A stretch of 64,000 nt of DNA from Mobula hypostoma (GCF_963921235.1 NC_086097.1:132062001-132126000); one strand, 5' to 3'. Positions 22,266-29,693 are shown, numbered from the stretch's first letter. The notes: generated by a model not told the origin, from the sequence alone. Numbers and translations are program-made.

Positions 22266-24154
22266 CAGTATTTACAACTCTTGTCATCCCTCACATCCCG
22301 CTTTGATAAATGAGACAATAATACAAGAAAATTGCACAGGAGTAGACCCCTCAAGCCTGTACTACCATTCAACATGATGATGGCTGATCTCCTCAGTCCG
22401 CAACCTTTCTGCTGTACCATTTCCCCACAGACCACAATTCTTCAATCTTTCACATATTTATCTGCTTCCTCTTTAAATACCTTTAACGATTTAACCTCCA
22501 CAACTCTCCAGGGTGGAGAATTTTAATAGACCACCAGCTTCTGTGAGAAGAAATGTCTATGTCTCTCAGTTTGAAATAACTCTTTCCCTCTCTCATCACT
22601 ATTTGAGGTCCTCTCGCTACTAGAATGATAGATAAATTATATATAAAAATGATATATAAAAAGATATAAGAAACTAAATGTTAATATTGTAGTATAAAAT
22701 AATGTCTTAGGCATAGCATTACTGATTAAAGACATAGGTGGTATCGACGTGGACCAACAAATGACCTGCTGGAAGAACTTAGTGGGAAAGGAAGCATCTG
22801 TGGGTGGAAAAGATTTGTTGCCATTTTAGGCTGAAAGCCTGGATCAGAACCATGGTGTCTCCAGAAATCTTTCTGGCCATTAATGGTTATATCATCTCAC
22901 TAATACAGATCTGAAATTAGCCCTAATTCCCTTTCCCTTTCATTATCATCCTACACATTTTTCCAATGAAAAAAATCTTCCCAATTCTCAAAGTTAACTC
23001 CTTTCCATTTTCAAACAACATTTCCTCCTGTTCATCACTGATGGCTTTACCTTCAGCTACTGAAACCTATTCCCTAGAAACCACTTCTTAATTATCTCCG
23101 GATACCAATTGCTTCCACAGTAATACACTTTACAGAAAGACTATCTCTCATACCCCACTACTGGTCAAAGTTGTTAAAATTCCCTCACTGAGTTAAATAT
23201 CAAATAATAATCCTTCGTACAAAACCTCATAAGAAGAGGTTATTGCTTAAAAAAAATGTGTCATTTCACCTGGTCCCTGTCTCTTTGGGATCAAAAGGCT
23301 TACTTTCTACTTTTTAAAACATTGAGCTGCAATTCATTTGACTTGCAGCTGATTGAGTGCCTTAATTTATTTGTGGAGGTTAGAGTTCTGTTTATTGGAA
23401 AATGGTGCATTCCTGCGTGGACAGTAATTGAACGCATTTGTTGAAAAATAACTGGCCCTTAATGACTAACAGGTAGAATAGCACAGGTATATTTAAATGC
23501 TTATCCATGGAGTCTTTCGGGTGACTGCAGGCAACTTATCTATTTAACCAAGTTGTTCATAGATATCTCTTCATGATTCCAATGGAAATGCTTCTCAAGT
23601 GCTCATTCATCCTTTTAGTGAAAGCATTTAATGGCTTTTTCCTTTTATACAACAAAGTGCTTTATATCCCATGAATTGATTACAAAAAAAAAGATAACTG
23701 AGCTTCATTTCATTCCCCATCGATAGCTTTATTTCAAATCAATATTGTTCACTGAAATAAGAAGAATCTGTGAAAATTCAGGATCCATTTCAATACAAGG
23801 GCAGGTCCCCCACTGCTGTGAGATCGCCAGTCGCCTGTGTCCTGGACTAGGCATCTTCTCTCAGTGTGGCCCTGAGCACAGCTCCCGGCTCAGTGTCCTA
23901 GATCAGTGGTGCCTCCATGTAAGAAATGACTGCATTCATTCAATGGCTTCACCCCCAGCTGTTCAGCTGCTGCTAAAAGTTGAAGGACATTCATCACCGC
24001 CAGGGATCACTTAGAATCTAGATAAAAAAGGGATTGTTTCTAAAAAAGTTGGTTATTGAAAATGGGTTTTAAAACTAATTAGTCAGATATAACGGGACAT
24101 ATCACACTCATGACACATAATATCACACATAATAGAGGTATATCATACTTTATA

Positions 24155-25155
24155 TTTATGACTGTGCGGCTAAGTACAGCTCCAATGCCATATTTAAGTT
24201 TACTGATGGCACCACTGTGGTAGGCCGAATCAAAGGTGATGATGAATCAGCGTACAGGAGGGAGATTGAAGGTAGGAGCAGACTAAGTAGTGTCAGCAAG
24301 ACCAAGCAGCTAATTATTGACTTCAGGAGAAGGAAACCAGAGGTCCATGAGCCAGTCCTCAATGGAGGACGAGAGGTGGAGAGGGGCATCAATTTAAAAT
24401 TCCTCGGTGTTATACTTTCAGAGAACCTGTCCTGGGCCCAGCACATAAGTGCAATTCTGACAAAAGCATAGCAGTGCCTCTACCTCCTTCGGACCTTGCA
24501 AAGATTTGGCATGGCGTCTACAACTTTGCCAAACTTTTATAGATGTGCGGTGGAGAATATATTCAATGGTTGCATTATAGTCTGGTATGGAAACACCAAT
24601 ACCCTTGAATGGAAAATGCTACATAAAGTTGTGTCTCTGGCCCGGTCCATTACCGGTAAAGCCCTCCGCAATATTAGTCATGCCTACATAGAGTGTCTTC
24701 ACAGGAAAACACTGCCCATTGTAAGGGACCCCCACCACCCAGGTCATGCCCTCTTCTCGCTGCTGCCATCAGGAAGAAGATACAGAAGGCTTAGGACTCA
24801 CAGCACCAGGTTCAAGAACAGTTATTATCCCTCAACATCAGGAACATCAGGCTCTTGAGCCAGTGAGAAAACTTCACACAACTTCAATTGCCCCATTACT
24901 GAACTGTTTCCACAACCTATGAACTGACTTTCAAAGACTCTTCATGTCATGTGCTTGATATTTATGCTTATTTATTGATTTTTTTTTTGTTCTTTCACAG
25001 TTTGTTGTCTTTTGCACGTTGGTTGCTTGTCTGTCCAATTAGATGTGGTCTTTCATTGATTCTATTATGGGTTCTTGGATTTACCAAGTATGCCCGCAAG
25101 AAAATGAATGTCAGGGTTGTATATGTACTTTGATAACAAATTTAGTTTGTACTTT
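24155..25155 (+). mobile_element. Rex1/Babar 3' fragment
   Basis: KFTDGTTVVGRIKGDDESAYRREI...FYRCAVEN...DPHHPGHALFSLLPSGRRYR. Confidence 0.9.
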
Positions 25156-28485: not shown

Positions 28486-28959
28486 AAATAAAAGAACTGT
28501 AGATGCTGGAAATCTAAAATATGGACAGAAAATTCTCAGAAGACCAAGCAGCATCTGGGGAGAGAGGAGATAATGAAGACTTTATGAATCTAAAATGAGT
28601 TATTTTTTTAATCTGATGAAGGGTCACTGACTTGAAATGTTATAGACACAAAACACAAAAACAAACTATTCAACCCATGAGTCCACACTGATATCAATAA
28701 CCCATTACACCAATCCTACATTAATTCCATTCTATTTTTAATTGGAACACAGAACAAGATTTACAGATTCCTTCTCCACAGGCTGAGTGTTGTCAATGTT
28801 TTATGTTATTTATTTTATACCATACAAACTGTCTTATCATCATCACTTTGCTGCTTGTGAGAAAATTGGACAAAGTTCATCGAAGTTGTCTTCCCAGGGA
28901 ACTGTGAATTCACTAATAACCACTTCTCTACTGGTGTCAGACCATACGATTATATCTGG

Positions 28960-29495
28960 ATGCAATGTGGTGAAAGCTATGATGAAGCCCATGAGTGCAA
29001 GTTAACCAAGTATGCAGAATTAAGATCAGAGTGCAGAGACAGAGGGTGGAAGGTCTCATGCTATCCATTCGAAGTAGGCTGCCGTGGCTTTATTGCATTC
29101 ACTTTCCAGAAGTGGCTGTGTGACCTTGGCTTCACTAGAAGAGAGATCAAGTTAACCAGCAGGACTGTAGCTGAGGCAGCAGAGACAGGATCTTCATGGG
29201 TGTGGACCAAGTACGTCCAGAGGGGCAGATAGTCAGACAGTGTATCCATCTTTTGCAAACCCTTCAGTAGTTGCATAGACACCTGAAGAGTAGACTATCT
29301 GTTGGATGGAAGCGACCAACAACTCTGATAGAGGCAGATGCCAAGTTTTTAAGCTCACCAGTGGGAGGTGGTGCTTTAGCACTGCTGGCCCACCACCTCG
29401 AGGGAGTCTTGATCATAAGTGGGCCAAAACTCCTGAAGACAGGTGGCAGATCAACTGATGATCCCACTGGTGATAGCACAGGACAGTTAACATCT
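28960..29495 (+). mobile_element. HERO/NeSL-group non-LTR retrotransposon 3' end (restriction-like endonuclease C-terminus plus 3' UTR)
   Basis: EAHECKLTKYAELRSECRDRGWKVSCYPFEVGCRGF...AEAAETGSSWVW; stop at 29232. Confidence 0.8.
29402..29468 (+). ncRNA. Hammerhead-ribozyme-like motif with permuted strand order (G12 mutated in this copy)
   Basis: GGAGTC^TTGATC..AGTGGG cc AAAACTCC..GATCAA CTGATGA t CCCACT: three complementary helices around the CUGAUGA / (G)AAA / GUC core. Confidence 0.55.
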
Positions 29496-29693
29496 TAGTC
29501 CAAGTGTATTTTCAATTCTTTATTATGACAGTAACAACTCAAACCACTTTGGGACGTCAAATATAAGTGGAAGAAAGGGGAGCTAATTAGCCATTTATTG
29601 AATGCTAATACAAAAGAAAGGGAGGGGATTGCTTCATCCTCCCTATTCTGCAGATAGCTGAACCAATACACCCAGTATATCACAAGTCCTTAC

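Follow-up and report, generated by a model that had tools for sequence, protein, structure and literature searches.

A conserved hammerhead-like RNA domain of unusual connectivity in the 3′ untranslated region of a HERO-type retrotransposon

How would the pieces of a hammerhead ribozyme found in a non-canonical strand order come together, and would they form a ribozyme at all? This question is raised by a 64,000-nucleotide (nt) stretch of the Mobula hypostoma genome (GCF_963921235.1 NC_086097.1:132062001-132126000; hereafter the window), in which a first-pass annotation had noted such pieces in the 3′ untranslated region (UTR) of a long interspersed nuclear element (LINE). The strings it had listed are all found where it placed them: GGAGT (29403-29407) and ACTCC (29429-29433) for stem III with a GTC ending at 29408, TTGATC (29409-29414) and GATCAA (29449-29454) for stem I, CTGATGA (29455-29461), AGTGGG (29418-29423) and CCCACT (29463-29468) for stem II, and ccAAAAc (29424-29430). 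Stems I and III and the cleavage site were rightly assigned, and the hammerhead core does lie in a non-canonical, pseudoknotted strand order; stem II has to be placed elsewhere, as set out below. On the basis of the results presented here, we propose that positions 29355-29473 probably represent a conserved RNA domain, about 120 nt long and decayed in this copy, within the 3′ UTR of a HERO-type LINE; the domain would constitute a complete hammerhead with a new connectivity. The clade name HERO is presumptive for the window element and follows the first-pass annotation.

The majority sequence of a 30-copy family alignment is AGCGGGCCGAAAC. Among 57 distinct family copies, position 29426, corresponding to G12 of the hammerhead, is G in 47, and position 29420 is C, the ancestral letter, in 35. 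Nearly all contig depth from four other public runs likewise carries G at 29426 and C at 29420; these runs are represented by assembled contigs, in which RNA ends are not visible. The restoration of ccGAAAC that had been predicted for the consensus is therefore confirmed, and judged against the family both the loss of G12 in the window copy, as suspected from the start, and the C29420T change are CpG decay. The window copy itself is predicted to be catalytically dead, inactivated by the G12-to-A change at 29426, while 41 of the 57 distinct copies pass a strict descriptor of the motif. Support from the window sequence by itself is only moderate: a relaxed, any-order descriptor that allowed AAAA returned the motif and one implausible overlapping match from the real window, as compared with 2 strong matches in 30 shuffled windows and about 2 weak matches per shuffled window.

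Distant relatives were collected by a protein-profile scan of metagenome contigs, which yielded 79 loci with HERO-like proteins 37-61% identical to the window family. A first scan by the rules of the first-pass annotation detected motifs with the cleavage-site block (S), the GAAA block (G) and the CUGANGA block (C) in the order S-G-C just past the open reading frame (ORF) in about 20 loci, with a 'stem II' of only 3-4 base pairs (bp). In the flanks of these relatives, the sequence that immediately follows CUGANGA pairs in every case with a stretch some 45-55 nt upstream of stem III, forming a closing helix (Pc); bases of the GGGCC type before GAAA pair with a GGCCC-type stretch just upstream, forming stem II; and the stretch between stem III and the 3′ strand of stem I pairs with a stretch after GGCCC, forming a further helix (P0). 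The strict descriptor, which incorporates the GGCCC/GGGCC-type stem II, gave 46 sense matches in 44 of the 79 loci, 0 matches on the antisense strand of the same loci, and 3 matches when the same 281,230 bases were dinucleotide-shuffled 20 times (0.15 expected per set). The strict matches sit 33-600 nt past the stop codon. The original placing of the motif as a conserved component of HERO-type 3′ UTRs is supported.

Coverage was counted over the 45 loci that have an identifiable stop codon and at least 230 nt downstream, and 30 of these contain the strict motif. Eight of the 15 remaining loci have the motif with one defect, namely G12 changed to A (L081), C3 changed (L125 and L130) or helix mismatches judged by eye (L067, L084, L090, L136 and L139). 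L074, L115 and L135 were left out of this defect tally; in L074 and L115 the protein-motif match lies outside the tblastn match.

In the window, the domain is composed of the following parts (counts out of 37 here and below refer to non-redundant relatives):

29355-29366, + strand: closing helix Pc, 5′ strand TCACCAGTGGGA, pairing with 29462-29473 over 12 bp; present in the RNAfold minimum-energy structure
29367-29386, + strand: hairpin Ph, stem 29367-29374 with 29379-29386 (8 bp, 3 of them G.U), loop TTTA
29387-29391, + strand: stem II, 10.x strand GGCCC, with G29387 as G10.1; covaries with the strand 5′ of GAAA
29393-29398, + strand: helix P0, 5′ strand CCACCT, pairing with 29441-29446
29399-29401, + strand: spacer CGA, whose GA abuts stem III on its 5′ side; contributes one strand to a kink-turn-like internal loop
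29402-29408, + strand: stem III, 16.x strand GGGAG, with U16.1 (29407) and C17 (29408); helix III is formed by 29402-29407 with 29429-29434
29409-29414, + strand: stem I, 5′ strand TTGATC, pairing with 29449-29454
29415-29420, + strand: linker joining stem I to stem II, ATAAGT (ATAAGC in the family consensus), A-rich in relatives
29421-29425, + strand: stem II, 11.x strand GGGCC, with C29425 as C11.1
29426-29429, + strand: G12-A13-A14-A15.1, AAAA in the window copy and GAAA in the family consensus
29430-29434, + strand: stem III, 15.x strand CTCCT; the 15.2-16.2 pair is C-G in 36 of 37 relatives
29435-29440, + strand: spacer GAAGAC, in which GA comes after three bases; the strand of the kink-turn-like loop that holds the bulge
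29441-29446, + strand: helix P0, 3′ strand AGGTGG, showing covariation
29449-29454, + strand: stem I, 3′ strand GATCAA, directly before CTGATGA
29455-29461, + strand: C3-A9, CTGATGA, following GATCAA
29462-29473, + strand: closing helix Pc, 3′ strand TCCCACTGGTGA, which contains CCCACT

From 5′ to 3′, the chain would thus pass through Pc, Ph, the 10.x strand of stem II, P0, stem III with U16.1 and H17, and stem I with its linker, and would return through the 11.x strand of stem II with GAAA, stem III, P0, stem I with CUGANGA, and Pc. The family consensus has all canonical core elements (C3-A9, G10.1-C11.1, G12-A14, A15.1-U16.1 and H17), and its stems I, II and III flank the core in their usual places. 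Because Pc follows directly after A9 and Ph lies flush against G10.1, a perfect four-way junction takes the place of the direct A9-G10.1 connection; the CUGANGA block is separated from stem II by Pc and Ph, and G10.1 is located 68 nt upstream of C3. In the window, Ph occupies the gap from Pc to G10.1 with no unpaired base, and in most relatives it is flush on both sides, with a 6-13-bp stem of quite different sequences. We infer that stem II stacks on the core and Pc on Ph. RNAfold, run on the window RNA with no knowledge of this model, predicted Pc, Ph and the GGCCC/GGGCC stem II. As a consequence of the C29420T change, A29392 and C29393 are also paired in the window copy, and in relatives stem II takes such forms as GGCGGC/GCCGCC, GACCCC/GGGGTC, GCCCCC/GGGGGC and GATGA/TCATC, among others. 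A type II-like reading, in which the 12-bp helix serves as stem II and GAAA is supplied from the stem I loop, was dropped because GGCCC/GGGCC covaries.

The far ends of stems I and II join P0 in a three-way junction, and P0 ties them to stem III. Of the 37 relatives, 24 have GA immediately 5′ of the stem III strand, 27 have two to three bases followed by GA on the other side, and 21 have both. Kink-turns, in the consensus ascribed to Klein et al. in 2001, reportedly have a three-base bulge and then tandem G.A pairs, set between two helices; in sequence, the internal loop separating stem III from P0 resembles this arrangement, and it would let P0 fold back to stems I and II. As to the hairpin, the loop of Ph carries the palindrome UGAUCA in many lineages (L064, L071, L073, L093, L098-L100, L104, L105 and others) and UGGCCA in other lineages (L065, L066, L072 and L102), the window family having UUUA instead. 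Such palindromes could form loop-loop dimers or bind protein.

Covariation was analysed with count_structure_pairs on A2, a plain MAFFT alignment of the 37 non-redundant instances. In A2, 83.4% of cells are paired versus 59.0% in shuffles, and 21 of 23 pairs have changed on both sides. The covariation score reaches 0.566; shuffles give 0.184, with none of 500 attaining the observed value, and slid partners give 0.07-0.19. Stem I is 86.2% paired with both-side changes in 6 of 6 pairs, and all four Watson-Crick pair types are seen at its positions 1 and 2. P0, which is absent from the search descriptor, is 76.5% paired and likewise shows both-side changes in 6 of 6 pairs. Pc begins immediately after A9 in 33 of 37 relatives and averages 8.92 bp with its own partners versus 5.45 bp with mismatched ones (0 of 2000 permutations as high). 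The expectation of the first-pass annotation that its three helices covary was borne out for stems I and III and failed for AGTGGG/CCCACT as stem II, which averages 2.27 bp with its own partners versus 2.25 bp with mismatched partners, 1006 of 2000 permutations being as high. Both strands of that helix belong elsewhere: the GAAA-side strand pairs with 29387-29391, and the strand after CUGAUGA pairs with 29355-29366. Under this revised pairing, the fold between two molecules that had been envisaged is not required.

The catalytic core is nearly invariant. The 10.1-11.1 pair is G-C in 35 of 37 relatives. When every core position was freed singly in the strict scan, U4, G5, A6, G8, A9, A13, A14 and A15.1 remained invariant in 46 of 46 matches; freeing C3 admitted 2 additional matches with T, and freeing G12 admitted 4 with other bases. 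With 16.1 and 17 freed, the 46 matches read TT (17), TC (15) or TA (14), and G occurs at position 17 in 0 of 46. N7 is T in 20 relatives, A in 8, C in 6 and G in 3. The conservation pattern of the core is that of an active hammerhead. The domain and its predicted catalytic bases are strongly conserved in many HERO lineages, and the domain is very probably a working part of the RNA.

How does this arrangement relate to known hammerheads? Three circular permutations were recognized until 2023, when three non-circular ones were added (PMC10085705). In that report by Eckert, Friedrich, Weinberg and Weinberg (Nucleic Acids Res 2023; PMC10085705), the hammerhead is divided into the blocks S, G and C, and type-SGC hammerheads, comprising the HRIMA-1 motif and variants, are described as natural RNAs that cleave in vitro. 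Their cleavage-site block is followed by the GAAA block and then by the CUGANGA block; the consensus is CUGAUGAUG, the linker from stem I to stem II has about 3 nt, and a fourth helix joins the far ends of I and II. All 583 examples are soil metatranscriptome RNA, where they occur beside hairpin ribozymes, and the authors assume that conserved blocks cannot be interrupted (PMC10085705). The S-G-C strand order, which the first-pass annotation had thought possibly undescribed, was thus already in print.

Measured against type-SGC as described there, the HERO motif has the same S-before-G-before-C order, with the circular order C-S-G in both, a similarly short linker from stem I to stem II, a pseudoknotted core, an extra element between A9 and G10.1 (a single U in type-SGC), a fourth helix that closes the three-way junction formed with the distal ends of I and II, and a single base between the stem II strand and this helix. 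In contrast, the 5′ strand of P0 occupies another chain position than the corresponding strand of the type-SGC fourth helix, and the 10.x strand, which in type-SGC comes right after CUGAUGA(U), lies upstream of the cleavage-site block; only in the HERO motif is it linked to A9 by Pc and Ph via a four-way junction. The published type-SGC RNAMotif descriptors fail on the HERO motif, G10.1 being demanded where the window has C. The two strands that make up stem II in type-SGC, one lying 5′ of CGAAA and the other following CUGAUGA(U)G, do not behave as partners in the permutation test, and the block that hammerheads are held to keep uninterrupted is broken, with Pc following A9. Type-SGC is known from soil RNA, whereas the HERO motif is known from DNA copies in the 3′ UTRs of animal LINEs. 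Formally, type-SGC yields this motif by circular permutation, when it is opened between A9 and G10.1 and its old ends are joined. No Rfam 15 model, hammerhead or other, matches the domain: there was no hammerhead match in the window at the gathering score, none at E ≤ 10 around the site, and no match at E ≤ 1 in six loci with intact motifs. Literature searches, with subscription-only papers and Repbase entries outside their scope, found no paper linking a hammerhead to HERO or another R2-group LINE.

Two other ribozyme systems of retroelements invite comparison. Cervera and de la Pena (2014, 2020) and Lunse et al. (2017) reportedly described minimal type I hammerheads of Penelope-like elements and retrozymes. 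As in the HERO motif, the core lies near the end of a retroelement, with partial tandem units in some relatives. These hammerheads, however, have the canonical C-G-S order and a tiny stem III, act as dimers, and reside in hosts that encode a GIY-YIG endonuclease or no protein, whereas the HERO motif combines a non-canonical order and full-length helices with an R2-group LINE host that has a PD-(D/E)XK endonuclease. Ribozymes of the hepatitis delta virus (HDV) type are said to stand at the 5′ end of R2 and other LINEs, in work attributed to Eickbush and Eickbush (2010) and Ruminski et al. (2011). They share with the HERO motif the R2-group host, a cut at their own 5′ side and retention of the ribozyme on the downstream product, but belong to another ribozyme class and lie in the 5′ UTR instead of the 3′ UTR. 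New here are a predicted hammerhead with a split CUGANGA/stem II block and, as its home, the 3′ UTRs of R2-group LINEs of animals.

If correct, this model breaks the assumption of uninterrupted blocks at A9|G10.1 with every catalytic base kept, and because of this interruption pattern searches built on the six orders miss the relatives. It would place a non-circularly permuted hammerhead in animal genomes and in an R2-group LINE, and would be the first known example of a non-circularly permuted ribozyme encoded by animal genomes. The domain of about 120 nt is a compact, directly testable RNA, and the closed arrangement that stem I, stem III and P0 form with a kink-turn-like loop makes it interesting for RNA structure and ribozyme engineering. 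Should it be active, the use to a LINE of cleavage 111 nt from the 3′ end would call for an explanation.

Active copies would cut themselves after position 17 (C29408), the predicted cut being the bond 29408/29409, to leave a 2′,3′-cyclic phosphate and a 5′-hydroxyl. The products would stay held by about 30 bp (Pc, II, P0 and III); cutting may for this reason be reversible, and re-ligation or template use across the nick is conceivable. In head-to-tail units, cleavage would give the downstream unit a free 5′ end, in the manner of HDV-like ribozymes for R2. We tentatively suggest, giving the idea slightly less than an even chance, that HERO LINEs of several animal phyla need this seventh hammerhead connectivity, and that cutting and re-joining within the paired domain would couple processing and the release of array units to reverse-transcriptase recognition. 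Units of HERO-like type, about 3.6-4.4 kb long, are observed head to tail, or as a full unit after a partial one that ends in the domain and tail, a layout that resembles the pseudo-LTR (long terminal repeat) arrangement of Penelope-like elements. The tandem or partial-unit loci are the following:

L099, 1-112 and 3644-3756: tandem or partial units
L102, 1-92 and 3734-3825: tandem or partial units; an assembly wrap-around is possible
L072, 700-2609 and 5112-7021: tandem or partial units
L135, 1-789 and 3679-4461: tandem or partial units
L061, motif at 86: probable tandem or partial units

Several observations weigh against a self-cleaving domain with such a role. None of the 30 genomic copies that hold 29409-29519 begins at 29409, and all 30 span the site, so that insertion templates must have been uncut, re-ligated or bridged. 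A cut would part the ORF from the 3′ end needed for target-primed reverse transcription, and its benefit is therefore unclear; the 3′-end processing role suggested by the first-pass annotation is at odds with a cut 111 nt inside the element and with the same 30 copies. Two long copies of the own genome, which share 3.45 kb, are not in tandem and have unrelated upstream flanks. L087, L088, L121 and L122 lack the motif despite enough downstream sequence, and about eight others have the single motif defects listed above. The helix junction between A9 and G10.1 is without tested precedent. Moreover, the descriptor itself required helices I, II and III; their pairing is therefore in part ascertained, which is offset by the controls (shuffles and slid partners) and by P0 and Pc, both outside the descriptor. 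The alignment of one copy, L032, among the 30 picked by protein match, stops at about 29413, which is taken as a rearrangement; a contig (depth 4) of the RNA-labelled run X17 covers 29237-29437, 29 letters past the site, and was not counted as bridging.

The same 30 spanning copies would be expected if the hammerhead-like fold were kept purely as a binding scaffold for the reverse transcriptase in target-primed reverse transcription, with no self-cutting in cells. R2-group proteins bind structured, pseudoknotted 3′ UTRs, according to PMC12222951, and the domain lies 46 nt from the 3′ end of the element; contig depth in X1 and X2 is, in addition, 20-50 times higher over 29431-29502 than over the rest of the element. 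Yet a scaffold gives no reason for keeping exactly eleven catalytic hammerhead bases, nor for the G10.1-C11.1 pair or the exclusion of G at position 17 (0 of 46), and N7, the helices and the spacers vary freely while the catalytic bases stay fixed. We therefore regard an exclusive scaffold function as unlikely; scaffold and ribozyme roles are compatible and do not exclude each other. Contigs of X1 and X2 have loose ends before 29430 and after 29467, and their depth excess suggests a far more abundant short element, possibly a short interspersed nuclear element (SINE)-like one, that shares only the last part of the domain and the tail.

The version of the first-pass annotation, a type-SGC-like hammerhead with AGTGGG (29418-29423) and CCCACT (29463-29468) as stem II, connected with the core by unpaired CC and T, and folded as a pseudoknot or from two molecules, draws on the six pairs present in the window copy, on the block order of type-SGC and on a U after CUGAUGA, as in the consensus quoted above (PMC10085705). 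It is very improbable: the ancestral C at 29420 in the consensus produces a C.A mismatch in this helix, its pairing across the 37 relatives does not exceed that of mismatched partners, both of its strands have other, covarying partners, and the published type-SGC descriptor demands G after CUGAUGA(U), where the window has C. As for a chance resemblance within a GC-rich structured UTR, the weak and strong matches of the relaxed descriptor in shuffled windows speak in its favour; we consider it to have a negligible probability, given 46 sense versus 0 antisense matches across distant lineages where shuffling leads one to expect 0.15, and it is contradicted by the covariation statistics too. A hammerhead with closing helix Pc, hairpin Ph and GGCCC/GGGCC as stem II remains the reading that we favour.

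The element around the motif is a 5′-truncated copy of a very abundant, young R2-group LINE. Its parts outside the domain are:

28981-29232, + strand: C-terminal coding part with the PD-(D/E)XK-type endonuclease region, stop codon at 29230-29232
29474-29519, + strand: 3′ tail of the element past the ribozyme domain, defined by family alignments

The predicted cut is 176 nt past this stop codon and 111 nt ahead of the element end at about 29519, beyond which similarity among family alignments is gone. Longer copies contain a C-terminal endonuclease region to which the ORF fragment ending at 29232 corresponds; among them is L046, with an open frame of 583 amino acids (aa), the end of which comprises a CCHC region and a PD...ELTVPWE...K...EVGCxG region. 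Protein relatives bear PF00078 (reverse transcriptase) and PF13966 (zf-RVT), with amphioxus, sea urchin, fishes and bivalves as hosts; the own match of the query to zf-RVT scores 21.4 bits, below the 27.5-bit cut-off. R2-group LINEs are defined, in PMC3636483, by a single ORF with reverse transcriptase followed by a PD-(D/E)XK-type endonuclease. In the own genome, the 3′ UTR has 1,558 first-look candidates, of which 40 were scored and are 96-100% identical, and the C-terminal peptide has at least 8,365, of which 150 were scored; these candidate numbers are not copy numbers.

Stop codons lie 33-40 nt before position 17 in L065, L066, L070, L072, L073, L100, L102, L104, L124 and L129, and in these loci the 5′ part of the domain (closing helix and hairpin) consequently overlaps the last codons of the ORF, where translation would unfold it. 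Two family copies, L038 and L058, have internal deletions of about 57 bases, with gaps corresponding to window positions 29337-29393 and 29382-29438, each of which removes part of the ribozyme domain. Upstream, the 105 bases at 28876-28980 are inverted in place relative to other family copies including L046, and adjoin the direct part from 28981. Judged by this arrangement, the inversion is the pattern expected of twin priming at LINE insertion, and the apparent ORF upstream of 28981 would accordingly be spurious.

A second HERO lineage is present in the own genome (for example at G000:C12:93549258-93549998), with a protein 65-69% identical to locus L099. It has at least 13,360 first-look candidates, above the number for the window family, and some of its frames are open over more than 1,000 aa. 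One copy of this lineage, a 351-nt stretch (L172) just downstream of the example locus, shows the same ribozyme design; its core is intact, and stem III has a single mismatch. Elsewhere in the window, two neighbouring open frames at 24136-24858 resemble the reverse transcriptase of another LINE (FTDGTTVVGRI and LKFLGVILSENLSW).

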